From Bacteroidales bacterium (GTDB lineage Bacteria; Bacteroidota; Bacteroidia; Bacteroidales; UBA10428): a stretch of 64,000 nucleotides of DNA. How positions within the stretch are numbered: the first letter of the stretch is position 1; each line of letters starts with the position of its first letter. Below the pieces are notes generated by a model, which saw only the letters and a program-made list of their open reading frames with translations, was not told the DNA's origin and did not search any database. This document shows positions 5,249-64,000 of this stretch, piece by piece. A program made the translations under genes and the position numbers. The stretch is from positions 7,929 to 71,928 of the forward strand of contig JAFGTR010000028.1 of the NCBI GenBank assembly GCA_016934055.1. Direction: 5' to 3'.

Positions 5249-7339
5249 TCAGGCCGACTTCTTTATTGATTCTGCCTTGTCGTTTGTGTTACCTGTTTCA
5301 CTTTTTGCCTTAAGGCTTTTTGCAGTCTTCCGGGATTTTTTCTGTTTTTTGCCAACATCAGGAGTTTTGTCGCCTTTTCTTTTCCCAAAAATCTTTTCCA
5401 GATCTTCGGCAAAGATGACTTCCTTCTCAAGCAGTTGCTCCGAAAGTTTCGTCAGTCCTTCTTTATGTTCTTCCAGAATTCTCAAGGCTCTCTCATATTG
5501 TTGTGTTACTATTTCTTTTACCTCATGGTCAATCATTTCCGAGGTTTTTTCACTATAAGGCTTGTGGAATGAGTATTCCGATTGACCTGTAGAATCATAG
5601 AAACTGATATTTCCGACTTTATCGCTTAGTCCGAAATATATCACCATTGCATAGGCCTGCTTGGTAACTTTTTCGAGGTCATTAACCGCTCCTGTCGATA
5701 TCTTTTTAAAGATGGTCTGTTCAGAAGCCCTGCCACCCAATGTTGCACACATTTCATCCAGTAACTGTTCACGTGTTGTTATCTGTCTTTCTTCAGGCAA
5801 ATACCATGCGGCTCCCAGTGATTTGCCCCTTGGAATAATGGTTACCTTAACCATGGGATTGGCATGCTCAAGCAACCAGCTTACGGTTGCATGACCGCCT
5901 TCATGAAAAGCAATGGTCCGCTTTTCATCAGGTGAAATAATCTTGTTCTTTTTTTCAAGTCCTCCCACAATTCTGTCAATGGCATCGAGAAAATCTTGTT
6001 TCTGCACAGCCTTTTTACTTTTCCGGGCAGCTATAAGAGCAGCTTCATTGCATACGTTGGCAATATCCGCCCCCGAAAAGCCGGGTGTCTGGCGAGCCAG
6101 AAAATCGATATCAAGGCTTTTTTCAATTTTTATGGGCCTCAGATGAACCAGGAAAATTTCCCTGCGCTCAGTGAGGTCGGGAAGCTCAACATATATTTGT
6201 CTGTCAAAACGTCCGGCCCTGAGTAATGCTTTATCAAGAATATCGGCACGGTTCGTGGCAGCTAAAATAATAACGCCGGCATTGGATGCAAATCCGTCCA
6301 TTTCTGTCAGCAATTGATTCAGTGTATTTTCACGTTCATCATTTGCTCCAAAATTGGGATTTCTGCCTCTTGCCCGTCCTATTGCATCGATTTCATCAAT
6401 GAATACAATACACGGGGCCTTTTCTTTTGCCGTTTTGAACAGGTCTCGCACCCTTGATGCCCCTACGCCGACAAACATTTCAACAAAATCGGAACCCGAC
6501 AGTGAAAAAAACGGCACATGTGCCTCTCCGGCAACTGCCCTGGCAAGAAGTGTCTTTCCTGTTCCCGGTGGTCCAACCAAAAGAGCCCCCTTGGGAATTT
6601 TTCCTCCCAGGTCGGTATATTTTTTTGGCTTTTTCAGAAAGTCGACAATTTCCTTGATTTCAATCTTTGCCTCTTCCAAACCGGCAACATCTTTAAAATC
6701 GATTTTAACGTTAGTATCTTTATCAAAGATCTTGGCTTTCGATTTCCCTACATTGAAAATATTGGTTCCTCCGGCACCAGGTCCGCCTCCGCTCATTCTC
6801 CGGAAAATGACAATATACAATATAACCAGGGCAATAACAGGCAACAGGTACCAGATGACCTGACCAAAAGACTGTTTGTCTCTGGAAACTGCGTATATCT
6901 TATTCTCTTCGGAAACATCTTCCTGTGCCTCTTCAAGTCTTTCTTCAAATTTTTCAAGGGATAACATGCCCTGCAACTTGTAATGAGGTCCTGTACGGCT
7001 CAGTGCATTAAGCCCTTTTGATGTCAGTTTCTGATGTTTGGGTTGATTCAGGTACTCAGGTTTGATATAGATCTCAACATCTTTATTGTTGACAACAACT
7101 ACCTTCTGTACTTCACCCTTCAGCAACAACTCATTCTTAAAAAAATACCAGTCGATTTCCGGTGGCTGTTGCCCTGAATCAAATAAATAAATCGATACAA
7201 GAGTCATCCCTATGAGAACATAAAGCCATACAGCGTTAAATTTTGGCTTTTTATTCCCTGTAAATGAATTATCTGTTTTACGTTCTCTATTATTTTCAGT
7301 ATTATTGACAGATTCCTTTTTTTCGTTGGTTTCTTCCAT
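5249..7339 (-). CDS. ftsH: ATP-dependent zinc metalloprotease FtsH
   Basis: Walker A GPPGTGKT, Walker [10 protein letters not shown], second region of homology, and zinc motif HEGGHA. 696 aa with a lysine-rich tail. Confidence 0.96.
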
Positions 7340-7358
7340 CCTTGTTGATTCTTTATTT

Positions 7359-7715
7359 TTATTCTTCTTTTATAATTGTCAAGTCCGCATCTCCCCACAA
7401 TTCTTCGAGTTTATAATAATCACGGGCCTCTTTAATAAAAACATGTACTACCACAGATCCGTAATCGAGCAATATCCATCTTGCATTTTCGGTCCCCTCG
7501 CGATGTTTAACATTTGTTCCGGTCAATTCCTTAACTTTTTTCTCAACAGCATCGGCTATGGCATGGACCTGTGTTGTTGAACCGCCATGACACAGAATGA
7601 AACTATCGCACATGGCATATCCCAGTTTAATCAGATCAATTTTGACAACTTCTTTGCCCTTTTTGTCCAGTATTGCATCTGTTATACAATTTAGCAATTC
7701 GTTATTATTTCCCAA
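7359..7715 (-). CDS. rsfS: Ribosome silencing factor RsfS (Iojap family)
   Basis: 118 aa. The profile ILDKKGKEVVKIDL...HVFIKEARDYYKLEELW is typical of RsfS. The only available start in frame is TTG. Confidence 0.85.
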   Translation of the reverse strand: MGNNNELLNCITDAILDKKGKEVVKIDLIKLGYAMCDSFILCHGGSTTQVHAIADAVEKKVKELTGTNVKHREGTENARWILLDYGSVVVHVFIKEARDYYKLEELWGDADLTIIKEE

Positions 7716-7746: not shown

Positions 7747-7754
7747 CAAAATTA
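7747..7754 (-). promoter_or_regulatory. Candidate Bacteroidota -7 box TAATTTTG for rsfS-ftsH
   Basis: Matches TAnnTTTG 32 nt upstream of the rsfS TTG start. It is part of a 14-nt direct repeat. Confidence 0.4.
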
Positions 7755-7887
7755 ATGAATTTAGCAGGATTATAATGTATAATTCAGACCGTTTATCATG
7801 TCTGACATTTAGGTATCTTTGTTTTAACACCTTTGTTGTTTATTTGTTCTATCAACAATAGTACCAAAACCATCAAAGTCACCTTTT

Positions 7888-13124: not shown

Positions 13125-13658
13125 TTATTTACTGATAACTTCCAGACCTCCAAAAACCACATCTGATTCAATATAGAAGTGAGGGGCATCTCTTTTAAAA
13201 GAGTCAGTGTTGTATATTATACTGCCGAAGGCAACCGTATTTCCATCGGGCATTCGTGAACCCCCAAAAACCGCTTCTGATTTTACCTTAACGGGCATAT
13301 CAGGATTAATTCTGATAATGGCGGCGCCAAACACAACATCAATTTTTATTCTCACTGTTTCCATTAATTGTTCTTCCATCCCGGTAAAATCATATACCGA
13401 TTTGCCGAATATAACATTGTATTGCGTTCTGTCAGCAGGCGTCTCCCTGTAAGTGCGTTCAGAAAAAAAAGTATCCCTGTCTTTTTTGGATCTTTCAGGT
13501 ATCCAGCTTTTTCCCAACAGAATTCTTACACCAATAAGAATAATGACGACCGCAATGACAATACGAAAAAGATTAACATCAAAAACAATCCGGAAAATAA
13601 TTGCCAGACCAATAAATATCAGAATCAATCCCCAGAAAAATCCAGGCGCCATTTTCAT
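13125..13658 (-). CDS. Membrane protein, LiaF-C/DUF2154-like
   Basis: Two N-terminal TM helices, then a repeated beta-rich xVVFGG/VFGxx pattern (VVFGAAII, AVFGGSRM, VVFGGLEV). Confidence 0.45.
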   Translation of the reverse strand: MKMAPGFFWGLILIFIGLAIIFRIVFDVNLFRIVIAVVIILIGVRILLGKSWIPERSKKDRDTFFSERTYRETPADRTQYNVIFGKSVYDFTGMEEQLMETVRIKIDVVFGAAIIRINPDMPVKVKSEAVFGGSRMPDGNTVAFGSIIYNTDSFKRDAPHFYIESDVVFGGLEVISK

Positions 13659-13733: not shown

Positions 13734-16190
13734 TTATTCAAAAATGAGAGGTTTATCAACTTTTTCCTGCAGCAATGTCAAATCAAGTACCTGCATGACA
13801 TTATCAACATAGTGAAATGTAAGTCCGTTTAAGTATATCTCCTTTATCTCACTGATATCCTTGCGGTTTTCTTCAGACATAATAATCTCTTTAATATCAG
13901 CACGTTTAGCGGCAAGAATTTTTTCTTTGATCCCTCCCACCGGCAACACTTTACCTCTGAGTGTAATTTCGCCTGTCATGGCAATACTTTTTTTCACTTT
14001 ACGCTGTGTAATGGCAGAAGCTATTGATGTAACCATTGTAATACCGGCAGAAGGCCCATCTTTAGGGATAGCTCCTTCAGGCACATGCAAATGTACATTC
14101 CAGTTTTCAAAAAGGCCGGGCTTAATATCAAGCTTTTCGCTGTGTGATTTTATATATTCAAGGGCAATGACAGCCGACTCTTTCATAACATCCCCAAGGT
14201 TACCGGTGATGGTCAGAACACCTTTACCCCTGCTGAGACTTGTTTCAACAAACAATATTTCACCTCCCGAGGCTGTCCATGCAAGACCTGTAACAACACC
14301 GGCAAACTCATTTCCCTGATATTTATCCTTAAGGTATTTTGGCGGACCCAGGATAATCTCTATATCCTTTATGGCTAATTTAACATTATAGCTTTCATTA
14401 AGGGCCACTTTCATGGCTGTAATCCTGCAGATTTTGGCAAGCTGCTTATCAAGTTCACGCACCCCTGATTCACGCGTGTAATTATCAATGATATATTCAA
14501 TAACCTGAGATGTGAATTTCAGGTGTTTTTTCATAAGACCATGATTCTTCAGTTCCTTTGGAATAAGATGTCGTTTGGCTATTTCTACCTTTTCCTCCAG
14601 AATGTATCCTGGAATGTTGATCAATTCCATCCGGTCAATGAGTGCAGGATTGATGGTGCTTGTAGTGTTTGCCGTGGCAATAAACAACACTTTTGAAACG
14701 TCATATTCCAGTTCAAGAAAATTGTCATAGAAAGTGCTGTTTTGCTCGGGATCAAGCACTTCCAGCAAGGCAGACGCAGGATCTCCGTGAAAGTCCCTGC
14801 CAACTTTGTCAATTTCATCGAGTACAAAAACCGGATTTGATGTTTTTGTTTTTTTCAGACTCTGGACTATCCGGCCTGGCATTGCCCCAATGTATGTTTT
14901 GCGGTGTCCACGGATTTCGGCTTCATCATGAAGTCCGCCCAGCGACATCCGTATATATTTCCGGTTAAGGGCTTTGGCAATGGATTTTCCCAGGGATGTT
15001 TTTCCGACACCCGGAGGACCATAAAGACAGATAATAGGAGATTTCAGATCACCCTTCAACTTCAAAACAGCCAGGTGCTCCACAATTCTTTCTTTCACCT
15101 TTTCAAGGCCGAAATGATCCTTATCGAGGATGGCCCTTGCCCTGTGAAGGTCAAAATTATCTTTTGTATACTCGTTCCAGGGGAGTTCCAATAATGTCTG
15201 AAGGTAATTGATCTGAACCGAATATTCGCCTGTAGCAGGATTCAGACGGTTAAGTTTTTCCACTTCTTTCAGAAAAACTGCTGAGACATCTTTACTCCAT
15301 TTTTTCTTCCTGCCCCTGGCTTTCAGCTCTTCTATCTCCTGTTCCAGGGGATTGCCTCCCAGTTCATCCTGGATTGTCTTCATCTGCTGGTGGAGAAAAT
15401 ATTCGCGCTGTTGCTGGTCAATGTCGAGTCTGACTTTATTCTGAATATCATTTTTCAATTCAAGCAATTGTACCTCTCTTGAAAGATATTGAAGCAACAG
15501 TGTTGCCCTTTTTTTCAGGTTATTGGTCTCCAGGAGCTGCTGTTTCTCTGTAATTTTAATATCACTGTTTGAACTGATAAAATTGATCAGGAAGGAAGAA
15601 CTTTCAATATTGCGCACCGCAAATGAAGTTTCCTGCGGTATGTTGCTGGATAATTTTATGATTTTTAGTGAAAGGTCTTTCAATGAGCCAATAATGGCTT
15701 CAAATTCCGGATCTTTTTTCCGGGGTTTGGAATCATCCATAGGACTTACCTTACCTATCAGATATGGCTCTTTGGAAAGAACACCTTCAAACTGAAAACG
15801 CTTTTTGCCCTGGATAATGACAGAGGTTGATCCATCAGGCATCTCCAGTATTCTTAAAATATGCGCTATGGTCCCTATCTTATATAATTCATCAGGAGCA
15901 GGATCTTCGTTATTAGGATCCTTTTGTGCCAGTGTACCGATTATTTTTGTTTTCTGATAAGAATCGCGTACCAGTTTCATCGATCTGTTCCTTCCCACCG
16001 TTATGGGAATGATGACCCCCGGAAACAATACCGTGTTGCGCAAAGGCAACACAGGCAAACTATCGGGTATTTGAGTCATGTTAAGACTATCTTCATCCTC
16101 TTCCGATATAAGGGGTATGAAATCACTGTCATCATTAATGGGTGAAGCAATAAACAAGTTGTTGTGTTTTTTATCCTGTGATATACTCAT
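13734..16190 (-). CDS. lon: ATP-dependent Lon protease (LonA)
   Basis: 818 aa with a LON N-domain. Walker [10 protein letters not shown], Walker [10 protein letters not shown], and the catalytic Ser context [11 protein letters not shown]. Confidence 0.96.
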
Positions 16191-16248
16191 AAATTATAAT
16201 TCCTGCAAATAATAACAAAATTCTGGACAAAATGTCAGTTGCCTGTGT

Positions 16249-16269
16249 TAAAATAATGGCATTATTTTA
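16249..16269. promoter_or_regulatory. 21-bp perfect palindrome TAAAATAATG-g-CATTATTTTA abutting the -12 element of the lon sigma-54 promoter
   Basis: Read directly. 10-1-10 symmetry centred on about 16259, the predicted transcription start zone. Confidence 0.45.
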
Positions 16270-16286
16270 TAGCAATCGTTGTGCCA
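16270..16286 (-). promoter_or_regulatory. Sigma-54 (RpoN) -24/-12 promoter candidate upstream of lon
   Basis: The minus strand reads TGGCAC-AACGA-TTGC-TA, a perfect fit to TGGCAC-N5-TTGCw. It is intergenic, 80 nt upstream of the lon ATG. Confidence 0.6.
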
Positions 16287-16329
16287 ATCATAATAATCCA
16301 ACGATATAAACGCAGACAATCTCATCAGT

Positions 16330-16372
16330 AAATTTAAACAAAAAGCTCCGTCTTCAGGAAGAGAACGGAGCT
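16330..16372 (-). terminator. Rho-independent terminator after rpmE
   Basis: Stem GCTCCGT/ACGGAGC (16345-16351 / 16365-16371), followed on the minus strand by TTTTTGTTT. Confidence 0.7.
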
Positions 16373-16390
16373 CAATCGCAAAAAAAAAAA

Positions 16391-16660
16391 TTATTTACTC
16401 TTCTTCTTATCGAAATGGTCCTTGTATCGGTTCATAAATTTGTCGACGCGTCCTGCTGTATCAACAAGTTTCATCTTACCTGTGTAGAACGGATGTGATG
16501 TGTTTGAAATCTCAATCTTCACCAGCGGATATTCATTTCCGTCTTCAAGCTTAACGGTTTCCTTTGTATTGACTGTTGACCGGGTAACAAAAGTATGACC
16601 ATTGGACATATCTCTGAATGCAATTAACCGATAGTTGTCCGGATGTATTCCCTTTTTCAT
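16391..16660 (-). CDS. rpmE: 50S ribosomal protein L31, type B
   Basis: [10 protein letters not shown]...HPFYTG. No CxxC zinc ribbon. Start moved to ATG 16660 (89 aa). Confidence 0.9.
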
Positions 16661-16692
16661 TTGTTTATAATTTCCTTTTTTAAAATGGCTTG

Positions 16693-16700
16693 CAAAGATA
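16693..16700 (-). promoter_or_regulatory. Candidate -7 box TATCTTTG for rpmE
   Basis: Matches TAnnTTTG 33 nt upstream of the rpmE ATG. Confidence 0.45.
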
Positions 16701-16731
16701 TGCATTCATTTTTAAAACACCAAGAGAAACT

Positions 16732-21578: not shown

Positions 21579-22823
21579 CTAAAATCTTTCAAAATCTTTA
21601 TCATCTTCAGAGGATGGCACAATGCCCTTTATACTCTTCAGCTTATATCCGTCAGACTGCTTTTCACCGGTTTTAACATCAGGCATGTCAGATGGCCTTT
21701 TAAACTGTTGTTTATTGTTTGTTTTAAAGAAAGAAATTAACTCGGTAAGTTGCTCTGCCTGCGAAGACAATTCCTCAGCATTGGAGGAAAGTTCTTCTGC
21801 CGAAGAAGCATTTTGTTGTGTTACACTGTTTAATTGCTGTATAGCAGAACTGACCTGGTTAGCTCCGTTATTTTGCTCAATGCTTGAAGCGGTAATTTCC
21901 TGTATAAGCCTGGTTGTTTTTTCAACAGTGGGAAGAGTATTGACCATCACTTCACCGGCTCCGTTAGTCAGCTCAAAGCTTTCATGGGTCAGACTGACAA
22001 TTTCTTCTGCTGCAACTTTACTCCTTTCAGCAAGCTTTCTGACTTCAGCAGCCACTACGGCAAAACCTTTACCATGCTCTCCTGCCCTGGCAGCTTCAAC
22101 AGCTGCATTCAGTGCAAGAATATTGGTTTGAAAAGCAATATCGTTGATGACAGTTATCTTCTCAAGTATAGTCTTATTCGCTTCAACAGCCTTTTTTGCC
22201 CTTGAGGAAACCTCCATGATTCCATTATTGGCTTCCTGTGATGTTGATTCTGTTTGTTGTGCGTTCTCGGTATTGCTCGCAATATTAGCAGCCATCTGTT
22301 CCATCGTGGAAGATATTTCTTCAACTGTGGATGCCTGTTCATTGGCCCCCTGCGATAACTGCTGAGATGCATTACTGATTTGCTGGCTGGCGGCATGAAG
22401 ATGATCGGCATTTCTGTCAATTTTCATAATTATATTATGCAAATTGCTCACCAGTTCGGCAAGAGAATTATTCAATATGCCTAATTCGTTCTGAGCTTTT
22501 GTTTCCTGAATTTTGATATCCAGGTTCCCCTCTGACACAGCTTTTACCTGAGAAATGGCATTATCCAGCGGTTTACGCAATAGATTATTAATTATAATAA
22601 ATACCACTGTGCCGAGTGCAAAATTCAGTGGCGTAATCCACAGCATATGAATTCCCCCCAGTTTATACTGAACCAGGTCAGCAAACGTAATATAAAAGAT
22701 AAACAATACGATGTAAAAGCTGAAAGTAAACATGATGGATTTCCTGAAGATAAGTTTCAGAATCAGATAAGCCACCGGTATACCGCCGATGACTACCAAG
22801 GCCTGTCTAAGATATTCATTCAT
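21579..22823 (-). CDS. Methyl-accepting chemotaxis protein (membrane-embedded N-terminus, HAMP, MA domain)
   Basis: Highly conserved hairpin tip [44 protein letters not shown] region after the N-terminal TM helices. Confidence 0.9.
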
Positions 22824-49353: not shown

Positions 49354-49552
49354 ACGCATAAGCCGTTTAAATAACAGGATCTGCAAATATGCAGACTTTG
49401 GCAAAAACCTGTTAAAACACGACCAAATGTAATGAATAATTAGCGTTCAATAAAACATGAAAAAATGGCAGTAACATTTTCCTCAAAAACGATTATTATT
49501 GTAATTTTGTCAGACGGAAATATCCATAAGCCATGTTTTTGGAGAAAAATAA

Positions 49553-50794
49553 ATGGAAAATATTGAATTACAGAAAATAAAACAGCGTTTTAGCATCATT
49601 GGCAACGCTCCCGGTTTAAACCGTGCTATTGACATTGCCCTGCAGGTAGCCCCTACCGATCTTTCAGTTTTGATTACCGGAGAAAGCGGTGTTGGGAAAG
49701 AAGTTTTTCCCAAGATTATTCATCAGTTCAGTTCCCGCAAACATGGGACTTATATTGCTGTGAATTGCGGCGCTATACCTGAAGGAACAATTGATTCAGA
49801 ATTATTTGGTCATGAAAAAGGCTCTTTTACCGGTGCTTATGAGAGCCGGAAAGGTTATTTTGAAGTAGCTAACGGCGGAACCATATTTCTTGATGAGATT
49901 GCAGAGCTTCCCCTGTCCACACAGGTAAGATTATTAAGGGTTCTTGAAACGGGTGAGTTTTTGAAAGTCGGATCATCTAAAGTGGTTAAAACCAATGTCA
50001 GGGTTATTGCAGCGACCAATGTTGACATTCAGCATGCTATTCAGGAAGAGCGTTTTCGGGAAGATCTTTTTTACAGGCTCAACACAGTGCCCATTGAAAT
50101 ACCACCTTTGCGGGACAGAAAAGAGGACATTATGCTGTTATTCCGCAAATTTGCTATAGATTTTGCCGAAAAAAACCGGATGCCGGCCATCACCCTTTCA
50201 GATGACGCCATGAGAATCCTTTCAAACTATCGCTGGCCCGGCCATATACGTCAGCTGAAAAATATCACCGAACAGATATCGATCATTGAATCAAAAAGGG
50301 AAATCACCGCTGAAATATTACAGCAATATCTTCCCGATTATTATGAATCAAAATTGCCCGCATTATATGATGCAATCGATCAGAAGACATTTGCCACAGA
50401 AAGGGAGATCCTGTATAAGATACTTTTTGATATGAAAAATGATGTCAATGACCTGAAAAAACTTGTTTTTGAGATTATGCAACACGGTCCGGCCGCTGCT
50501 GAAGTACACGAAGGCCATGCCAGTGTTATACAGAAACTTTATGAAGATGTGGATGCGGTCATGACCGATGAAAAGGCCGCGCGTAAGTTTGAAATAATAA
50601 AACCTCAATCTGATAATATCCAGGACACCCAGGAGGTCTTTGAAGAATCATTGTCTCTGGCAGACAAAGAAATGGAGCTTATTATCAAAGCACTGGAAAA
50701 ACATCACGGCAAACGAAAAAATGCGGCCAATGAGCTGGGTATCTCAGAACGGACATTGTACAGAAAAATTAAAGAATACAATATTGAAGATTAA
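49553..50794 (+). CDS. Sigma-54-dependent transcriptional activator (bEBP) without an N-terminal sensory/receiver domain
   Basis: The AAA+ core starts about 20 aa from the N-terminus. Walker A GESGVGKE, GAFTGA-loop variant GSFTGA, Walker B IFLDEI, RVIAATN, C-terminal Fis-type HTH ELGISERTLYRKIKEY. An insert of about 110 aa sits between the AAA+ core and the HTH. Confidence 0.9.
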   Translation: MENIELQKIKQRFSIIGNAPGLNRAIDIALQVAPTDLSVLITGESGVGKEVFPKIIHQFSSRKHGTYIAVNCGAIPEGTIDSELFGHEKGSFTGAYESRKGYFEVANGGTIFLDEIAELPLSTQVRLLRVLETGEFLKVGSSKVVKTNVRVIAATNVDIQHAIQEERFREDLFYRLNTVPIEIPPLRDRKEDIMLLFRKFAIDFAEKNRMPAITLSDDAMRILSNYRWPGHIRQLKNITEQISIIESKREITAEILQQYLPDYYESKLPALYDAIDQKTFATEREILYKILFDMKNDVNDLKKLVFEIMQHGPAAAEVHEGHASVIQKLYEDVDAVMTDEKAARKFEIIKPQSDNIQDTQEVFEESLSLADKEMELIIKALEKHHGKRKNAANELGISERTLYRKIKEYNIED

Positions 50795-50800
50795 AATGTT

Positions 50801-51313
50801 ATGAAAAGAACCTTGACATGGACAATCATTTTGTGGGTCTCATGGTTGACTCAGGGTTGTTTTACCTTTTCACTGACCACAAAGGATGCCTCAATACCAA
50901 TTGAAGCGGAGACTGTTTCTGTACAATACTTTCAGAATATGGCCAGGATCGTTGAACCTGCTCTCAGCCAACAGTTAACGGATGATCTGAAAGATTATAT
51001 ACAGGAAAATACCAGACTGAAGCTGATCAATGGGGCAGGCGACCTTGATTTCGAAGGAACCATAACCGGTTATGATATAAAACCGGTATCCATAACATCT
51101 GATGAACAGGCAGCACAAAACCGTTTTACGATAACAGTTAAAGTGAAGTATACATGCTCCGTAAAAGAGGACATGGATTATGATGCCAGTTTCTCAAGAT
51201 ATGAAGATTTTGATTCTTCACAGGATTTTGAGACTGTAAAAAATGATATGACCGAAAGGATAATGAAGTTGCTTATAGAAGATATCTATAATAAAGCATT
51301 TGTTAACTGGTGA
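50801..51313 (+). CDS. LptE-like lipoprotein
   Basis: Lipobox LTQGC. 170 aa. The position between the sigma-54 activator and secG is, as I recall, conserved in Bacteroidota. Confidence 0.55.
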   Translation: MKRTLTWTIILWVSWLTQGCFTFSLTTKDASIPIEAETVSVQYFQNMARIVEPALSQQLTDDLKDYIQENTRLKLINGAGDLDFEGTITGYDIKPVSITSDEQAAQNRFTITVKVKYTCSVKEDMDYDASFSRYEDFDSSQDFETVKNDMTERIMKLLIEDIYNKAFVNW

Positions 51314-51320
51314 TACAGGT

Positions 51321-52316
51321 ATGCTGAGTAATGACATATTGATAAAATACATTGACAATCCGGAATTGCTGAATTCACAGTCATTAAAGGAAATTCAGCT
51401 TCTGACAGACCAATATCCTTTCTTTCAGACTGCCCGTTTACTGGAAGTCAAAAATCATCATGCTGCCGGTTCTTCCGGTTTTCAGTCGAAACTCCATTTT
51501 GGGGCAGCCTATGTTGCTGATCGCAAAATCCTGTATGAACTTATTTATCCTCTTGAAACAAAAACCATAAGGTCCGAAGAGAAAGAGAAAGATGAAACCG
51601 TGACCGGAAAAGTTGAAAAAGAAATAAAACCCACCCTGAAAGAGAACATTGCCGACATCATGGCAACCCAATTGCAAATAATCGATTCGCTCGATCCTGA
51701 GGCTGCTGAACTGATCCCTATGATTTCCCTTGATATTGAAAAGGAATACGGCGGATTGGAAACAGAAGAAAATATCATGAGCCATGAAAATACCGGTGAT
51801 GAGATTATATGGCTTGAAGGGGCTGAAACTGATCACCTGGTTTCAGTTAATCAGGATGAACCCTCGGTTTTGTCGGTTGATAAACACGAAGCCCTGATTG
51901 ACCTGGAGGAAGAAGATACAGTTGAACAGGTTTCCGCAGATATTGATCTGAAAACTGAACAGCCGGCGGAAAATGAAATGCATCAGGAAGCCGGACCTGA
52001 TGTTCCGGATATACAGCAGGAAACTGAAATTCCGGACAAAGATGAAACTCCCAGTAAAAGTACATTAATTGACCGCTTTATTGAGACAAATCCTCGTATT
52101 GCACCACCGGTTGGACCTGTCCCGGAAATTGATGTATCAGCGGAAAGTGTTAAGGAAGATGAAGGATTTCTTACTGATACACTGGCAAAAATTTATGTTA
52201 AACAGGGGTATTATTCAAAAGCTATTTTTGCTTATGAAAAATTGATGTTGAAATATCCGGAAAAAAGTACTTACTTTGCAGCCCAAATTGAAGAGATTAA
52301 AAAAATAATGGAATAG
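51321..52316 (+). CDS. Hypothetical acidic protein with a C-terminal TPR-like motif
   Basis: The central region is very D/E-rich. The C-terminus YVKQGYYSKAIFAYEKLMLKYPEKSTYFAAQIEEIKK is TPR-like. Start moved to ATG 51321. Confidence 0.5.
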   Translation: MLSNDILIKYIDNPELLNSQSLKEIQLLTDQYPFFQTARLLEVKNHHAAGSSGFQSKLHFGAAYVADRKILYELIYPLETKTIRSEEKEKDETVTGKVEKEIKPTLKENIADIMATQLQIIDSLDPEAAELIPMISLDIEKEYGGLETEENIMSHENTGDEIIWLEGAETDHLVSVNQDEPSVLSVDKHEALIDLEEEDTVEQVSADIDLKTEQPAENEMHQEAGPDVPDIQQETEIPDKDETPSKSTLIDRFIETNPRIAPPVGPVPEIDVSAESVKEDEGFLTDTLAKIYVKQGYYSKAIFAYEKLMLKYPEKSTYFAAQIEEIKKIME

Positions 52317-52387: not shown

Positions 52388-52711
52388 ATGTACGGATTAA
52401 TTATAGGAATTGTCTTGTTTCTTTCCATTCTTCTGATCCTTGTTATCCTGGTTCAGAATCCCAAAGGAGGAGGTCTGGCATCCGGATTTTCATCTTCCAA
52501 TCAAATTATGGGCGTTAAGCGAACAGCTGATTTTATTGAAAAAGCCACATGGGGTTTTGCCTCCGCTATTGTAGCGTTGAGCATAATTGCCACAATGTTT
52601 ATTAACCGGAATAAAGAAACCGGAATCCAGACCAAGATCCAAAATATTGAAAATGCTATTCCCGCTGATCAGATGCCAACTTATCCCACCAATATACCCG
52701 GGGAAGAATAA
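52388..52711 (+). CDS. secG: Preprotein translocase subunit SecG
   Basis: 107 aa with two TM helices. LVQNPKGGGL is the SecG signature. Confidence 0.85.
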   Translation: MYGLIIGIVLFLSILLILVILVQNPKGGGLASGFSSSNQIMGVKRTADFIEKATWGFASAIVALSIIATMFINRNKETGIQTKIQNIENAIPADQMPTYPTNIPGEE

Positions 52712-52744: not shown

Positions 52745-52783
52745 AAAAAAGTGTCAGTATGTCATAGTAACTGACACTTTTTT
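52745..52783 (+). terminator. Rho-independent terminator after secG (13-bp stem, symmetric A/T tracts)
   Basis: AAAAAAGTGTCAG-tatgtcatagtaa-CTGACACTTTTTT. Confidence 0.8.
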
Positions 52784-52929: not shown

Positions 52930-52945
52930 TGGCACAGAATTCGCT
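52930..52945 (+). promoter_or_regulatory. Sigma-54 -24/-12 promoter candidate upstream of groES
   Basis: TGGCAC-AGAAT-TCGC-T versus the consensus TGGCAC-N5-TTGCw. There is one mismatch, and GG/GC and spacing are intact. It lies 50 nt upstream of the groES ATG, after the secG terminator. Confidence 0.5.
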
Positions 52946-52994: not shown

Positions 52995-53273
52995 ATGTCA
53001 GATGTAAAAATTAAACCTTTAGCCGACAGGGTGGTTATAAAACCATTGGAAGCCCAGGAAAAAACTGTTAGCGGGATCATCATCCCCGATTCTGCCAAGG
53101 AAAAACCCCAGCGTGGAACTGTCGTTGCAGCAGGACCCGGTACAAAAGATGAAAAAATTGAAGTGAAAGTAGGTGATGTTGTTTTGTATGGAAAATATGC
53201 AGGAACAGAAATCAACATCGATGGCACGGATTATCTGATCATGAAGCAGACTGATATTCTGGCCATTGTATAA
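52995..53273 (+). CDS. groES: Co-chaperonin GroES
   Basis: [12 protein letters not shown]...[24 protein letters not shown]... 92 aa. Confidence 0.96.
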
Positions 53274-53292: not shown

Positions 53293-54945
<1,653 letters not shown>

Positions 54946-54998: not shown

Positions 54999-55146
54999 GC
55001 CTGACACCTCTCGTTTTTGAATCATATTAGATTGCATTTCATTAAAACATTGTGTAAATTTATTTGTAAAGTACGGCATGAATGGCAGTTTTGACTTTTC
55101 TGTACATTGGATGCTCCAATGATATTCTGCAAGGTTATCAGTGATT

Positions 55147-58100
55147 ATGTTTAAAAGGAAAAGCCTGGCGAAGATGAAAGAAGAAAAAAATCCGGAGAAA
55201 ATTTTTGATCAGTTTTTCTCAAACAGCATAGATCTTCTTTGTATTGCCGATATGCAGGGCTATTTCAGAAAGCTCAATCCGGAATGGGAACGTACCCTGG
55301 GTTATTCATTATCCGAACTGGAGGGAAAAAAGTTTATTGAATTTGTTCATCCTGAAGATGTTGAGAATACTGTTGAAGCTACAGTTCAACTGGCAAACAA
55401 TCGGCAGGTACACAACTTCATAAACCGATACAGACACAAGGATGGTTCATACCGTTGGATAGAATGGCGATCATTTCCCGCAGAAGAAATGATCTATGCC
55501 TCAGCACATGATATTACGGAACAGAAAAAGACCGAAGAGGCTTTGAAAGAAAGTGAAGAAAGGAATCGCCTTATTTCTTCGCTGGTTGCAGATTACGTAT
55601 TTAAATTTGAAGTGGATGAAAATAAAAATCTGAACCTGACCTATATTTCTGAAAACTTCAGAGAATTAACCGGCCGGACCACCGATGAAGCAAAGGATAT
55701 CAGCAACTGGGCGAATATATTTTATCCGGAAGACTTGCCAAAAGTTCAGCAATTCATACAACAAATGCTGTCGGACGCCAGACCCGGTGAACTGGAATGC
55801 AGATCATTGACGAAAGGAAGAATACGATGGATAAGCATATATGCAAAACCCGGGACTGATGAAACAACAGGACGGGTTATTTCCATAACCGGTGCTGTTA
55901 AGGATATTTCAGGTAAAAAAGCAGCAGAAACGGAACTGCGGCAAAGTGAGGAAAAATTCCGCTCTATCGTAGAGCATTCCCTGGCCGGCATTTTCACGAT
56001 TGATGAAAACTTCCGTTTTATTTATGTTAATGATGAATTGTGCAAAATTGCAGGTTATTCCCACGATGCAATTATCGGCATGGACTTTCGTAAGCTTTTG
56101 TCACCAAAAAGCCTTGAAATGGTTGTTGATCGATATAGACGCAGACAAAAGGGAGAAGTCGTGCCCCACCGTTATGAAATTGACATAATTCGTGGTGACG
56201 GGGAAATCCGACAGGCTGAAATGATGGTGAATGTTATTAAAAATAGTGAAGGAAAACCCCGCAGTATGGGACAGCTCATTGACATTACCGAACGGAAAAA
56301 GACTGAAAATGATTTGCGCGAAAGTGAGTTTCGTTTACGCAGCTTTATTGAAGAATCCCTCGAAGGTGTGGTTATAATAAATGAAAAAGGCCTTATTGAA
56401 GAATGGAACCAGAAGGCTGAAACCATCACAGATCTATCACGTGATAAGGCCATTAATCAGTATTGGTGGCATATCATCTATGAGTTGCTGCCACCTGAAA
56501 GGCGCACTATTATATCGGAAAAACAACTGGAAAACGCCATTAAGGAAATCCTGAAAACCGGAAAAATAACCTCTAAACCAAATGATAATTACGCCATTAA
56601 ACATCCTGATGGTGTAATCAAATATATCGAACAAAAGGAATTTACCATCAAAACGGAAACCGGTTACCGCATCGCCGGTATCCTGACAGATATTACAGAT
56701 AAAATCCAAACCGAAGCATCACTGGAACAGGCCAGAATGTTTAACGATGCCTTGCTTGAAAGCACGCCGGGTCTTGTTTACATATACGATGAAAAGGGTA
56801 ACCTTGTAAGCTGGAACAAGCGTCATGAAACAGAAACCGGTTATGATGCCGGCGAACTTGCCCATATGAACCTTTACGACTGGTTTAAGGATGAGATTAA
56901 AAAAACTACCAAAAACAAAATAAAGGATTTTTCAGCCGAAACCGTTATGAATTACGAGGCACCCATCATCAAAAAAAACGGTGATGAAGTTCTGTATTAT
57001 TTTTCTACCGTTACCACAATGATTAACGGAAAGAAATATTATGTAGGGATAGGTTTGGATATATCCGAACAAAAACGTATAGAAAACGAGCTCCGGCAGT
57101 TTGCCGGATTACATCAGACCATACTCGATACCGTTTCGGTAGGTCTCATCTATGTTAAGGATCGTAAAATCCAATGGGCAAACAGCTTATTCTTCAGAAT
57201 GTACGGTTATGAATACCAGGAAACATTTGAGGCTGACACATCTATGCTGTATAAAAGCAAAGAAGATTACCGGAGGATTGGAAAAGAGGCTTATCCTGTA
57301 CTGGCTAAAGGCGAAATATATTCCACCGAAACACAGGCGAAAAAGAAAGATGGCAGTGTTTTTTGGGTTTTCTTAAGTGGAAAAGCCCTGGATCCGGACA
57401 AGCCCGAAGAGGGTTCCATCTGGATGATACAGGATATCACTGAAAGAAGGAATACTGAGCTTGCCCTGAAAAAAAGTGAAGCTCAGTTCAGAGACATGAC
57501 CCAGAACATTCCGGGAATGGTCTTTCAATTTTATACCCGTAAAAATGGTGATCAGGGGTTTAATTATGTCAGTGATCAGTCATTGAAATTCCTGGGAATT
57601 GAAAAAGAAAAAACCACGGATTTTTATAATGAATTCATTAATGGTATTGCTGAAGAAGACCGGCAAAGATTTTTTTCTTCAGTTCAGACAGCAGTTAACA
57701 ACATGTCGAGATGGCAATTTGAAGGAAAATACGTTAAGCGCGATGGAAAACATATGTATTTCAAGGGTATAGCCCAACCAAAGATGGCAGACCAGGAAAT
57801 TATTTTTGACGGATTGATACTTGATGTCACTGAAAAAAGAATGGCCGAAGAAAGACTGCGCGAAAGCGAACAACTCTATCGAAGTATAGTTGAGATGGCC
57901 CCTGACGGGATAACCCTTATCGATCTGACAGGTAAAATACTGATGTGCAACAAACAAATGGCGACACTTCTGGGCTATGATGACATTGATCAGGTCATCG
58001 GCCTAAAAGTAACAGATGTCATCGCACCGGAGTTACACACCAAACTGATACAGGATTCACATTACATACAGGAACATGGCCATTCAGAAAGTTTGCGCTA

Positions 58101-59355
58101 TAAATATGTGAAAAAAGACGGCACTTTTTTTACCGGGCATTACCGGGGCTCTATGATATATGACATCGACGGACATCCTGTCGCCTACCTTGGGATTGTT
58201 ACAGACATCACTGAAAAAGAGAAAGCCGAAGAAGCCATAAAACAGAGCGAGGAATCGCTGAACCAGGCACAGCATATGGCAAAGATCGGCAATATGGAAC
58301 TTGACCTGGATAAAGATACCGGTTATTTTTCCGATGAATTGTATAAGCTTTTCGGATTAGATCCCGGAAAAGGTGTCCCGAAATTTAATGACTTCATAAA
58401 GGTTATTCATCCTGATGACCGGCAAATTATCATTAACACCAACAAGCCCCGCAAAAAAACAGCACAATCACTCACAATTGAATACCGAAGCAATCCTGCC
58501 CTCGGTCCGGTAAGGTATTTCCTGTCAAACAACGAAATGTTTTATGATCCGGTTGCCGGATCACGAAAATTAATTGCCACTATTCAGGATATAACCGAAC
58601 GAAAAAAAGCTGAAGCTGAGATAATAAAGCTAAACCAGGAGCTCGAAAAAAAGGTGGAAGAAAGAACAGTTAAACTGAACGAAGCCGTTAAAGATCTTGA
58701 ATCATTCGCCTATAGCGTATCTCACGATTTACGGGCACCTATCCGTCATATAGATGGATTTCTTAAATTGTTGTATGCCAATATTATACATCCAAATGAA
58801 GCTATAACAGGTTACTATAATAAAATTGAAAGTGCGGCACAACGTATGTCGGTCATGATAGACAGCCTCCTCACTTTTTCACGACTGGGGAGAAAAGAAT
58901 TGACATTTTCAGAGATTGATACGGATACGATTATTCATGAGATCATTGAATTATATAAAACGGATATCGGGAACCGCAAAATTCAATGGAAAATTTCCAG
59001 GCTTCCACATATACATGGCGACAAAAATTTAATTAAATTGGTATTTGAGAACCTTATTTCAAACGCTGTCAAATACACATCGAAAAAACAAAAGGCCATC
59101 ATTGAAATAGGATCAACTTTTGAAAACGGACAACATAAGATATTTATCAGAGATAATGGCATCGGCTTTGATATGGCTTATGCCGATAAGCTTTTTGGTG
59201 TTTTTCAACGCCTCCATAATGCTGAGGATTATGAAGGAATAGGTATCGGACTGGCAAATGTGAAACAGATTATAGAAAAACATGAAGGAACAATAAAAGC
59301 TGAAGGCATAATTAATAAAGGAGCAACCTTCTGTCTTACCCTACCCAAAAACTGA
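55147..59355 (+). CDS. Cytoplasmic multi-PAS sensor histidine kinase (nine PAS/PAC modules + HisKA + HATPase_c)
   Basis: Nine recurrences of the PAC-end/linker motif D-[IV]-[TS]-[EDG]-x-[KRIE]-[KRQ], each followed by a short acidic coiled segment. H-box FAYSVSHDLRAPIRHIDGF, N-box ENLISNAVKYT, G-boxes DNGIGF and GIGIGL. No TM helix. GTG 55141 is also a possible start. Confidence 0.9.
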   Translation: MFKRKSLAKMKEEKNPEKIFDQFFSNSIDLLCIADMQGYFRKLNPEWERTLGYSLSELEGKKFIEFVHPEDVENTVEATVQLANNRQVHNFINRYRHKDGSYRWIEWRSFPAEEMIYASAHDITEQKKTEEALKESEERNRLISSLVADYVFKFEVDENKNLNLTYISENFRELTGRTTDEAKDISNWANIFYPEDLPKVQQFIQQMLSDARPGELECRSLTKGRIRWISIYAKPGTDETTGRVISITGAVKDISGKKAAETELRQSEEKFRSIVEHSLAGIFTIDENFRFIYVNDELCKIAGYSHDAIIGMDFRKLLSPKSLEMVVDRYRRRQKGEVVPHRYEIDIIRGDGEIRQAEMMVNVIKNSEGKPRSMGQLIDITERKKTENDLRESEFRLRSFIEESLEGVVIINEKGLIEEWNQKAETITDLSRDKAINQYWWHIIYELLPPERRTIISEKQLENAIKEILKTGKITSKPNDNYAIKHPDGVIKYIEQKEFTIKTETGYRIAGILTDITDKIQTEASLEQARMFNDALLESTPGLVYIYDEKGNLVSWNKRHETETGYDAGELAHMNLYDWFKDEIKKTTKNKIKDFSAETVMNYEAPIIKKNGDEVLYYFSTVTTMINGKKYYVGIGLDISEQKRIENELRQFAGLHQTILDTVSVGLIYVKDRKIQWANSLFFRMYGYEYQETFEADTSMLYKSKEDYRRIGKEAYPVLAKGEIYSTETQAKKKDGSVFWVFLSGKALDPDKPEEGSIWMIQDITERRNTELALKKSEAQFRDMTQNIPGMVFQFYTRKNGDQGFNYVSDQSLKFLGIEKEKTTDFYNEFINGIAEEDRQRFFSSVQTAVNNMSRWQFEGKYVKRDGKHMYFKGIAQPKMADQEIIFDGLILDVTEKRMAEERLRESEQLYRSIVEMAPDGITLIDLTGKILMCNKQMATLLGYDDIDQVIGLKVTDVIAPELHTKLIQDSHYIQEHGHSESLRYKYVKKDGTFFTGHYRGSMIYDIDGHPVAYLGIVTDITEKEKAEEAIKQSEESLNQAQHMAKIGNMELDLDKDTGYFSDELYKLFGLDPGKGVPKFNDFIKVIHPDDRQIIINTNKPRKKTAQSLTIEYRSNPALGPVRYFLSNNEMFYDPVAGSRKLIATIQDITERKKAEAEIIKLNQELEKKVEERTVKLNEAVKDLESFAYSVSHDLRAPIRHIDGFLKLLYANIIHPNEAITGYYNKIESAAQRMSVMIDSLLTFSRLGRKELTFSEIDTDTIIHEIIELYKTDIGNRKIQWKISRLPHIHGDKNLIKLVFENLISNAVKYTSKKQKAIIEIGSTFENGQHKIFIRDNGIGFDMAYADKLFGVFQRLHNAEDYEGIGIGLANVKQIIEKHEGTIKAEGIINKGATFCLTLPKN

Positions 59356-61720: not shown

Positions 61721-64000
61721 TCAACCTTTCAGCAAAAGAAGTTTATCCTTCGCTTCATAAACCGTTTCAATATTATCGATGGTCAGAATAAGTCTGTTGT
61801 TTCCTTCTTTCATTCTGAATTGCCTGTGATCCTTCTGGATTACGGTAAGGATAGTGCCAAACACCAATGATTTGTAAAAGTCAGAATCAGGATCTGAAAT
61901 GAAATACCCGATCATTTTCCGGCCCTTGAGCAAGAGCTTTTCAAAACCCAGACTGACGGCCAGCCATCGTAACCTTACCACTTCAATCAACTCAACAGAC
62001 TCGGGTGGCAAAGGACCAAAACGGTCTTTTAGCTGGTTTTCGAATGAAGCAAGTGCATTTTCATTTTCTATCTGATCGAGTTGCCGGTAAAGATCCATTC
62101 GCTCTGCCACGTTTGAAATATAGAAATCGGGGAAGAGCAATTCAAGGTCCGTATCAATCTGACAATCTTTAAGATAATATGAAGATGCCGGTTTATGTTC
62201 CTTTTCGGTTTCAAATACCGCCTTGTATTCTTTTTCTTTGAGCTCCTGAATGGCTTCATTGAGAATGCGCGTATATGTTTCAAAACCAATATCGGCAATA
62301 AATCCGCTCTGTTCAGCGCCCAGCAGGTTACCCGCGCCACGAATATCGAGATCCTGTAAGGCTATATTGAATCCGCTTCCCAGGTCGGAAAATTCCTCAA
62401 TGGCTTTTACCCTTCTTCGTGCTTCAGGTGTCATAAGATGCAAAGGCGGTGCCAACAGGTAACAGAAAGCTTTCTTGTTCGACCTGCCAACGCGGCCACG
62501 AAGCTGATGAAGGTCACTAAGGCCAAAATGATGTGCATTGTTGATGAAAATTGTATTGGCATTTGGTATATCGAGCCCTGATTCAATAATTGTTGTCGAG
62601 ACCAATACGTCATAATCACCTCTGATAAAATCAAGCATGGTCTTTTCAAGCTTCTGACCCTCCATCTGGCCATGGGCAACAATGGTTCTGACACCGGGAC
62701 AAAGTCGCTGCACCAGACTTTGAATTTCAACAATATTCTGAATCCTGTTGTGGATAAAAAAGACCTGTCCGCCCCGCGAGACCTCATATAAAATACCTTC
62801 CTTGATGATATCCTCATTAAAGGTATGCAATTCGGTTACAATGGGATGACGATTCGGAGGCGGCGTATTGATGACAGACAGATCGCGGGCTCCCATCAGA
62901 GAAAACTGTAAAGTGCGCGGAATGGGAGTCGCTGTCAGTGTTAAAGTGTCGACATTCAGTTTCAGCCTTTTCAGTTTTTCTTTGGCCGCAACACCAAATT
63001 TTTGCTCTTCATCAAGGATGAGCAGGCCAAGATCTTTGAAGTGAACATCAGAGCCCAATAAACGATGTGTGCCAATGATAATGTCGACTTTCCCTTTCCC
63101 CAGATTCTCCAGCGTTATCTTTTGGTCTTTTGGTTTTCTCAACCTGCTGATATGATCGACATGGCAGGGAAAATCTTTCAGCCTTTCACTGAAAGTATTG
63201 TAATGCTGTAAAGCCAGTATTGTGGTGGGCACAAGAACGGCCACCTGTTTGTTGTCGGCAACAGCCTTAAAAGAAGCCCTAACAGCAACCTCAGTCTTTC
63301 CAAAACCTACATCGCCACATATCAGCCTGTCCATGGGAACTTCCGACTCCATATCTTCTTTGACTGCACGACTGGCTTTCTCCTGATCCGGCGTATCTTC
63401 AAAAATGAAAGAAGCCTCAAGCTCATATTGAAGATAAGTATCAGGAGAAAATGCCATGCCTTTTATCATCCTGCGTTTTGCATAAAGTGCAATCAAATCC
63501 CGGGCTATATCCTGAATCTTTCTTTTTGTTGATTGTTTCAAACGCTGCCAGGCTCCGCTTCCCAGTTTATAAAGACGCGGAGGCCCTTCTTCCCTGCCTT
63601 TGTATTTTGATATTTTGTGAAGAGAATGAATGCTCACATATAATATATCCTGATCCTGGTAAACCAGTCTTACAGCTTCCTGCATCCTGCCGTTGATATT
63701 AATTTTTTCAAGACCTCCGAATTTACCTATGCCATGATCAATATGAACCACATAATCACCGGGCTGTAAGCCTTTTAATTCCTTCAGTGTAAAGGCTCCC
63801 TTGTCAGAAAAATAAGCATCAAGGGTATATTTGTGATAGCGTTCAAATATCTGGTGATCAGTGAAACAGCATATTCTGATATCCTGATCTACAAATCCCC
63901 CGTGCAGGGTCTGGTGTAAAGGCCGAAAAGACAGTAACGGGTTAATGTCATGGAAAATGGCTGTCAGACGATCAATCTGTTTTTCACTGTCGCTTAAAAT
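61721..64000 (-). CDS. mfd: Transcription-repair coupling factor Mfd, C-terminal about 760 aa (5' end lies outside the window)
   Basis: The frame stays open from 63751 to the window edge; I translated it codon by codon. PGDYVVHIDHGIGKF, helicase motif I GDVGFGKTEVA, DEEQKFG, and a TRG/translocation motif region. Confidence 0.95.
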   Translation of the reverse strand: MLSDSEKQIDRLTAIFHDINPLLSFRPLHQTLHGGFVDQDIRICCFTDHQIFERYHKYTLDAYFSDKGAFTLKELKGLQPGDYVVHIDHGIGKFGGLEKININGRMQEAVRLVYQDQDILYVSIHSLHKISKYKGREEGPPRLYKLGSGAWQRLKQSTKRKIQDIARDLIALYAKRRMIKGMAFSPDTYLQYELEASFIFEDTPDQEKASRAVKEDMESEVPMDRLICGDVGFGKTEVAVRASFKAVADNKQVAVLVPTTILALQHYNTFSERLKDFPCHVDHISRLRKPKDQKITLENLGKGKVDIIIGTHRLLGSDVHFKDLGLLILDEEQKFGVAAKEKLKRLKLNVDTLTLTATPIPRTLQFSLMGARDLSVINTPPPNRHPIVTELHTFNEDIIKEGILYEVSRGGQVFFIHNRIQNIVEIQSLVQRLCPGVRTIVAHGQMEGQKLEKTMLDFIRGDYDVLVSTTIIESGLDIPNANTIFINNAHHFGLSDLHQLRGRVGRSNKKAFCYLLAPPLHLMTPEARRRVKAIEEFSDLGSGFNIALQDLDIRGAGNLLGAEQSGFIADIGFETYTRILNEAIQELKEKEYKAVFETEKEHKPASSYYLKDCQIDTDLELLFPDFYISNVAERMDLYRQLDQIENENALASFENQLKDRFGPLPPESVELIEVVRLRWLAVSLGFEKLLLKGRKMIGYFISDPDSDFYKSLVFGTILTVIQKDHRQFRMKEGNNRLILTIDNIETVYEAKDKLLLLKG

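Follow-up and report, generated by a model that had tools for sequence, protein, structure and literature searches.

Promoters that depend on sigma-54 (RpoN) are known to serve chaperone and protease genes in Bacteroidota. Guérin et al. 2021 (ISME Commun, PMC9723704) mapped sigma-54-type (SM4) transcription starts in Flavobacterium psychrophilum at groES-groEL, lon, dnaK, grpE-dnaJ, htpG, clpB and skp. The promoters of lon and of the chaperones belong to a single co-expression cluster, B254, whose basal expression is high; the study assigns no activator, and the text consulted describes no enhancer. A survey published in PLoS One in 2025 (PMC12316311), purely matrix-based and conducted at the level of orthologous groups without enhancer analysis, found that in Flavobacteriia and Bacteroidia sigma-54 promoters are enriched at GroEL, GroES, DnaK, DnaJ, GrpE and IbpA and at the proteases COG0542, COG0466 and COG1066; for grpE and groES it refers to Sabree et al. 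2009, and it states that activator specificity is unavailable for most organisms. Sigma-54 is not treated in the transcriptome papers on B. thetaiotaomicron. Here we analyze a sigma-54 box upstream of lon, the gene of the ATP-dependent protease Lon (which we take to be COG0466), together with a second conserved motif, TGNCA-N3-TGNC(A), and a candidate activator gene, all located in a stretch of 64,000 nt from an uncultured Bacteroidales bacterium (contig JAFGTR010000028.1 of GCA_016934055.1, positions 7,929-71,928, forward strand), hereafter called the window.

The sigma-54 drive of heat-shock genes in Bacteroidota is thus already published, and the lon box of the window is a correct new instance of it. 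An earlier note on this DNA had proposed that the box points to a different regulatory logic for proteostasis genes in the lineage; this logic is supported by our analysis, but it is not new, being contained in both studies (PMC9723704, PMC12316311), and since the arrangement had been published the lon finding as stated there is an ordinary one. What is added here to Guérin et al. (PMC9723704) is the phased TGNCA-N3-TGNC(A) motif. With sigma-32 (RpoH) of Proteobacteria and with HrcA/CIRCE the system shares its outputs (lon, groESL, dnaK, clpB) and the use of one dedicated switch; it differs in that the promoter would be opened by an activator at the expense of ATP, whereas those systems work by sigma replacement or by derepression, and in that CIRCE is missing from the window.

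RESULTS

The sigma-54 box upstream of lon

On the minus strand, positions 16287..16270 of the window read T-TGGCAC-AACGA-TTGC-TA. The box (Table 1) agrees with TGGCAC-N5-TTGC at 10 of 10 fixed positions, and its GG (16285/16284) and GC (16273/16272) dinucleotides are exactly 10 bp apart, so that the perfect consensus with correct spacing reported in the earlier note is reproduced. It is intergenic and sense-oriented and lies less than about 100 nt upstream of a gene that has no housekeeping promoter box, with 82 nt between the lon ATG and the C of TTGC (80 nt to the last base of the site as quoted earlier). From the rpmE stop (16391) to the lon ATG there are 200 nt, and the placement of the site behind the rpmE terminator was correct as well. 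An exact TAnnTTTG (-7 type) box, which the earlier note had looked for between the site and lon and not found, is absent from the whole rpmE-lon gap; likewise, the CIRCE inverted repeat TTAGCACTC-N9-GAGTGCTAA gave 0 matches across the window with up to 3 mismatches allowed, as had been claimed.

Both strands of the window together contain two perfect matches to TGGCAC-N5-TTGC, at 16272..16286 (-) and 62440..62454 (-), compared to a mean of 0.12 in dinucleotide-preserving shuffles, which is the chance expectation calculated earlier; two matches were reached in 0 of 100 shuffles. If one mismatch is allowed, 9 matches are found and 4.6 expected, and because of this only mild enrichment the relaxed pattern alone says little.

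We compared 80 lon loci (L001-L080) from GTDB genomes, in which Lon is 61-89% identical to that of the window and which represent the orders Bacteroidales, Marinilabiliales, Flavobacteriales, Chitinophagales and Sphingobacteriales; 77 of them were counted. A sense-strand box with at most 2 mismatches is present within 300 nt upstream of lon in 70 of the 77 loci (controls: antisense strand 8/77; coding or distal sequence about 9 per 300 nt), a box with at most 1 mismatch in 37/77 (0-1 in controls) and a box without mismatch in 9/77 (0 in controls). Its position and orientation are kept in Bacteroidales, Flavobacteriales, Chitinophagales and Sphingobacteriales, and the lineage consensus reads TGGCAY-A-N4-TTG-[A/C]. 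In the closest relative (L001, 89% Lon identity) the box and the terminator are kept while the flanks and the intervening sequence are scrambled. When both strands of the window were scored with a lineage position weight matrix derived exclusively from other genomes (135 sites; 73 lon and 62 groES), the lon site ranked first (21.6 bits) and the groES site described below ranked second (18.4 bits). The perfect match at 62440..62454 (-) lies inside mfd, as the earlier note had cautioned, and reaches 12.9 bits compared to 21.6 for lon; for this reason it is most likely a chance match. It is situated on the mfd coding strand, with no gene after it in that orientation.

The scan of lon orthologues suggested in the earlier note thus came out in favor of the motif, and on this comparative basis we are highly confident that 16272-16286 (-) would act as a functional sigma-54 promoter of lon, orthologous to the proteostasis promoters found Bacteroidota-wide at lon, groES-groEL, dnaK, grpE-dnaJ, htpG and clpB. 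The lon start of F. psychrophilum (Table S2 of PMC9723704) has GG at -25/-24, the base after TTG at -12 and a 116-nt leader. By analogy, the lon transcript of the window is predicted to start at 16260 with a leader of 70 nt, and the start near 16260 that had been proposed earlier equals this transferred position. The two loci have in common the gene, the box (ATGGCACAATCCTTGA there, TTGGCACAACGATTGC in the window), the geometry from box to start (mapped there, predicted here), the groES companion and the gene cluster activator-lptE-X-secG-groES-groEL; they differ in class (Flavobacteriia versus Bacteroidia) and in the length of the leader, 116 nt compared to the predicted 70 nt.

A generic sigma-70 promoter, CTGACA-18-TATTAT (16238..16209), was considered as well and rejected, because it scores no better than shuffled sequences, because its consensus is foreign to Bacteroidota, which do not use it (PMC7366714), and because its '-35' is the conserved TGACA pentamer of the second motif. 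K-mer and gapped-dyad enrichment revealed no phylum-wide activating sequence upstream of the lon box, but only A/T runs and a Flavobacteriaceae-specific TGTTACA[CG]TTT. In loci of this family (e.g. L027, L040, L051, L065, L068) an A-run follows this element, whose distance upstream from the sigma-54 box is 40-120 nt and which adjoins a divergently oriented gene; it was not found in Bacteroidales loci. In many Bacteroidales the neighboring gene ends 10-40 nt before the lon box. On the other side of lon, 75 nt downstream and on the same strand, a 177-aa open reading frame (ORF; 13125..13658, -) may be co-transcribed with it; its product has a weak, sub-threshold likeness to the LiaF C-terminal domain (E 3e-4). 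The mechanically called ORF of rpmE (16391..16705) is 15 codons too long, since the profile match begins at residue 16 and a second ATG is found at 16660.

The companion promoter of groES-groEL

The near-identical element at groES to which the earlier note had drawn attention deviates from the pattern at one position and lies 51 nt from the groES ATG. Among 80 groEL loci from metagenomes (L081-L160; 71-80% identity), 67 had enough sequence, and 62 of these carry TGGCAY-N5-TTG with at most 1 mismatch 40-130 nt before groES, compared to 0.05 expected per 250 nt. Across loci the -12 part is looser at groES (TATG, TTCG, TGTG). As the TTCGC variant of the window recurs in many loci, the 'mismatch' is itself conserved. 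A further lon promoter, adjoining groEL, was seen at L150:8934 (-).

A second motif in helical register with the promoter

Aligning the interval from the box to the lon ATG across loci brought up a second conserved block, CTGACA-N3-TGNC. Perfect copies of TG[AC]CA-N3-TGNC lie between box and ATG in 59/77 lon loci, and in the window the motif would occupy about +23..+36 of the predicted transcript. Counted from the T of TGGCA, its start lies at 49-51 nt in 22 loci from several orders; counted from the -12 TTG, many orders have it at 35-37 nt. Other lon loci show offsets of 61, 72 and 82-83 from the T of TGGCA, and Flavobacteriaceae offsets of 116-121, there at a constant 12 nt before the ATG.

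At groES, a perfect TGNCA-N3-TGNCA is found within 200 nt upstream of the box in 41 of 60 loci, whereas the remaining sequence of those same loci yields 16 matches in 499 kb (0.009 per 280 nt). The offsets cluster at -14, -25, -36, -46, -57, -67, -78 and -88 and are phased, the Rayleigh test giving R 0.81 (p about 5e-11, n = 36) for periods of 10.25-10.5 nt, no signal being obtained at periods of 8, 9, 12 or 13 nt; the dyad centre is separated from the GG of the -24 element by a whole number of helical turns. The lon motif of the window (offset 49) deviates by at most 0.5 nt from the groES lattice, and the lon offsets of 49-51, 61, 72 and 82-83 fit the same helical pattern. Short-range dependence on the face of the helix is a hallmark of sigma-54 enhancers such as the NifA and NtrC sites. 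One further case, (TG)ACATTTTGTCC at offset -25, was found at the mapped clpB promoter of F. psychrophilum, for which the promoter table spans -50..+10 per start site.

The motif was absent (0/5 within 150 nt) from five non-proteostasis sigma-54-type promoters in the fetched loci. These high-scoring boxes without a 13-mer nearby, L087:10034 (+), L136:7463 (+), L149:6308 (+), L122:9917 (-) and L156:6425 (+), precede lipoproteins, a radical-SAM enzyme and an MscS-type channel. A regex scan of the fetched loci for a third gene family (DnaK, ClpB, HtpG, GrpE and similar) gave only ftsH, in the window. Within the 64 kb of the window the full 13-mer occurs only twice, inside a GH53 gene and at 52752, where it forms part of an array of TGNCA pentamers (Table 1) and precedes the groES box by 178 nt; the same arrangement of pentamers stands upstream of groES in related loci. 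The array with its T-run doubles as the secG terminator, and a near-identical sequence is present in the distant loci L082, L090, L121 and L125, despite a SecG identity of only 40-50%; such conservation of a terminator at the sequence level is unusual.

Flavobacteriaceae also carry a perfect palindrome, TGACAGTTTGTCA, about 25 nt after the lon ATG and within the first ~50 nt of the coding sequence (L042, L044, L045, L048, L053, L054, L056, L059, L061, L062, L065, L067, L068, L071, L073, L077-L079). Its invariance at synonymous positions suggests a constraint at the DNA level and a second site of the same motif. In the literature searched we found no relevant description of TGNCA-N3-TGNC(A), which apparently has not been described before.

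A candidate activator encoded next to groES-groEL

The gene at 49553-50794 encodes a bacterial enhancer-binding protein (bEBP) composed of an AAA+ domain (residues 15-182, with a GSFTGA loop), a lid (187-262), a variable linker and an HTH_8 domain (369-409), with neither an N-terminal sensor nor a receiver domain. No NCBIfam model reaches its cutoff with this protein. It aligns in full length, over residues 15-409, to TIGR02974 and resembles E. coli PspF in combining AAA+ and C-terminal HTH without a sensor domain and, presumably, in being controlled in trans and in serving a stress regulon; with 273.1 bits compared to a cutoff of 443.55 it is not a PspF orthologue. The candidate targets differ too, being cytoplasmic proteostasis genes instead of envelope genes, and the proposed sites lie near or downstream of the promoter, whereas PspF sites are located at -80 to -126. 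A PspA-like partner was not recognized among the annotated neighbors in the window. Myxococcus xanthus lonD is reportedly transcribed from a sigma-54 heat-shock promoter activated by the HsfA/HsfB two-component system; a heat-responsive lon gene on a sigma-54 promoter would be common to both cases, which differ in phylum and in the activator, there a phosphorylated response regulator, the candidate described here having no receiver domain.

In an alignment of 18 orthologues, the lid and a conserved helix are followed by about 60 variable residues and an invariant HTH; judging from this pattern, the variable stretch is a flexible tether, which would suit sites near the promoter on either side. 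Of 47 loci whose upstream sequence is long enough, about 20 have the order activator-lptE-X-secG-groES-groEL. F. psychrophilum has it too, and its activator, of 418 aa, shows steady expression (PMC9723704). Upstream of the activator gene of the window there is an exact -7 type box and no sigma-54 box; the gene is probably expressed constitutively and not autoregulated. A description of the candidate activator in this role was not found in the literature searched.

Table 1. Features of the lon and activator-groESL regions of the window
Feature	Position	Strand	Basis or remark
lon (LonA, ATP-dependent endopeptidase La, 818 aa)	13734..16190	-	TIGR00763, 929 bits (cutoff 608)
Second motif CTGACATTTTGTCC (TGNCA-N3-TGNC)	16225..16238	-	conserved block compared to L001; candidate activator site downstream of promoter
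Predicted lon transcription start	16260	-	analogy with mapped F. psychrophilum lon start
Sigma-54 -24/-12 box of lon, TGGCACAACGATTGC (TGGCAC-AACGA-TTGC)	16272..16286	-	perfect 10/10 pattern match
Terminator-like hairpin and T-run after rpmE, upstream bound of lon promoter region	16339..16373	-	sequence; identical in L001
rpmE (type B ribosomal protein L31)	16391..16660	-	ATG at 16660 likelier start than 16705
Exact TAnnTTTG (-7 type) box of activator gene, TAATTTTG	49502..49509	+	44 nt before ATG
Sigma-54 activator (bEBP), 413 aa, candidate for lon and groES	49553..50794	+	PF00158, 226 bits; HTH_8
lptE	50801..51313	+	activator-groESL cluster
ORF of unknown function (X)	51300..52316	+	activator-groESL cluster
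secG	52388..52711	+	activator-groESL cluster
TGNCA pentamer array (TGTCA-GTA-TGTCA ... CTGACA)	52751..52783	+	overlaps secG terminator hairpin; candidate groES upstream enhancer
Sigma-54 box of groES-groEL, TGGCACAGAATTCGC (TGGCAC-AGAAT-TCGC)	52930..52944	+	one pattern mismatch; 18.4 bits
groES	52995..53273	+	profile search
groEL	53311..54945	+	profile search

Other genes in the window

The rsfS-ftsH operon (5249..7715, -) is preceded by a weak sigma-54-like box, TGGTAC-TATTG-TTGA (7852..7866, -; 9.8 bits), 137 nt before rsfS, and by an exact housekeeping box, TAATTTTG, at 7747..7754 (-). The ftsH gene of F. psychrophilum shows co-expression with the cluster of sigma-54 chaperone genes, although no start was mapped for it in that species (PMC9723704). 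The product of 21579..22823 (-) combines HAMP and methyl-accepting chemotaxis signalling domains, and such a chemoreceptor-type protein is unexpected for a usually non-flagellated lineage. A multi-PAS histidine kinase of 1404 aa is encoded at 55141..59355 (+).

DISCUSSION

The explanation that we prefer joins the promoter, the motif and an activator, and taken as a whole we hold it with good confidence. RNA polymerase with sigma-54 would form a closed complex at GG (16285/84) and GC (16273/72), ATP hydrolysis by an AAA+ activator would open the promoter, and transcription from near 16260 would produce the 70-nt leader. The activator probably docks on TGNCA-N3-TGNC(A), which faces the same side of the helix as the -24 element; its docking site would lie just downstream of the promoter in lon (16238-16225, about +23 to +36) and upstream of it in groES. 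The sensor-less AAA+/linker/HTH protein 49553-50794 may well be the activator of lon and groES, an assignment that we place slightly short of even. It would be made from its own housekeeping-type promoter and, having no built-in sensor, is presumably controlled in trans, for instance through an inhibitor, titration by chaperones or proteolysis. A constitutive, sensor-less activator would fit the high basal expression of the regulon.

Several observations weigh against this explanation. Classical sigma-54 enhancer sites are located 80-150 bp upstream, whereas many groES sites are found only 1-60 bp upstream of the -24 box, some of them at -14 and thus abutting it, and the lon motif lies within the transcribed leader, all of which is atypical for an enhancer; many loci, moreover, hold a single 13-mer, that is, one dimer site. 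The Flavobacteriaceae lon offsets (116-121) do not fall on the helical lattice, and neither does the perfect site at -178 in the groES region of the window, which otherwise has only degenerate in-phase copies, at -47 and -140. Where secG adjoins, the motif is embedded in the secG terminator, hence part of its conservation could serve termination. The loci are related and not phylogenetically independent, although shared ancestry cannot explain the phasing because eight separate offset classes fit one lattice. No RpoN-box peptide is encoded within the 64-kb window. As for the activator, about 60% of the groES loci do not show the synteny, F. psychrophilum has three such activators, left unassigned by the authors (PMC9723704), and the tie between the motif and 49553-50794 is a presumed one.

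The missing synteny and the three activators of F. psychrophilum also speak for a rival that accepts the promoter and the motif as described and assigns them to another bEBP elsewhere in the genome, e.g. one of the response-regulator type, the 49553-50794 protein then serving the neighboring envelope genes lptE and secG. The activator gene is co-transcribed with lptE and not with groES, and Myxococcus lonD reportedly uses a two-component activator. The synteny, however, is shared by two classes (Bacteroidia, Flavobacteriia), a sensor-less activator that is constitutively competent agrees with the regulon's high basal level, and the long variable tether fits promoter-near sites on either side; overall, we consider a different activator a real possibility, though not the one that we would favor. 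It is rather unlikely, in our judgment, that the promoter is real while the motif serves a dedicated repressor as its operator, in a system functionally analogous to HrcA/CIRCE or HspR/HAIR. Such a repressor would damp the promoter by keeping the activator from its access at groES or as a roadblock in the lon leader. The dyad-like 13-mer, seen at proteostasis genes only, the position of the lon motif at +23..+36, which is a classical one for a repressor or roadblock, and the groES loci in which the motif abuts the -24 box would all suit such a protein. Yet the sites reach to -88 and beyond in strict helical register, which is the signature of face-specific activation and not of occlusion, and no candidate repressor gene is linked to the lon or groES loci. 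Sigma-54 promoters are silent without their activator, and a repressor is therefore not needed for tight control.

The location inside the predicted leader might also suggest an RNA-level hairpin or thermometer that controls translation or stability of the lon messenger and is unrelated to the groES motif, the more so as the Flavobacteriaceae motif keeps a constant 12 nt to the ATG and is able to pair with an arm upstream of it. This reading was rejected and we regard it as very improbable: the central bases of the two lon pentamers (A/A in 30 loci, A/T in 17, A/G in 6) are not complementary and show no covariation, the folding of the predicted leader does not surpass that of shuffled sequence (z = +0.22), and an Rfam scan of positions 15900-16500 at E <= 10 returned chance-level hits only (ROSE_2 with 15 bits, threshold 65). 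The groES copies, furthermore, lie upstream of the promoter in helical register and are not transcribed from it. Taken together, these four observations, the lack of complementarity, of folding and of an Rfam match and the phased upstream copies at groES, point to a protein-binding site on DNA. Finally, the lon box could be a fortuitous consensus match like the one in mfd, and that second perfect match inside a coding region as well as the mild excess of one-mismatch matches could be cited for this. Its recurrence in 70 of 77 orthologous loci from four orders, on the sense strand only, its top score with the lineage matrix and the mapped start at the orthologous box of F. psychrophilum (PMC9723704) leave this notion with next to no probability; on the evidence of conservation, chance as the origin of the lon box is excluded.

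The lon promoter thus confirms the published sigma-54 drive of chaperones and proteases, to which the phased 13-mer and the candidate activator are the added value. To our knowledge, most Bacteroidota have neither sigma-32 nor HrcA, and for this reason the sensing of folding stress in these bacteria is poorly understood. We tentatively suggest, while considering it less probable than not, that a single undescribed switch, a sensor-less, PspF-like activator combined with a phased 13-bp site, governs the entire cytoplasmic heat-shock and proteostasis regulon of Bacteroidota. The activator, whose gene adjoins lptE-secG-groESL, would reach with its long flexible tether onto the 13-bp site. This site would be kept in strict helical register with the -24 element, be it upstream, as in groES and clpB, or in the leader, as in lon, and the stress signal would act on the activator in trans, e.g. 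through chaperone titration or Lon-dependent turnover. If this is true, Lon-dependent turnover would close a feedback loop through the lon promoter itself. For promoters of this class, a natural sigma-54 enhancer at +30 in a leader, or directly against the -24 box, would be uncommon. Dominant gut symbionts, pathogens of fish and marine degraders belong to the Bacteroidota, and the phased motif and the syntenic activator make the sensing arm of their heat-shock response directly testable.

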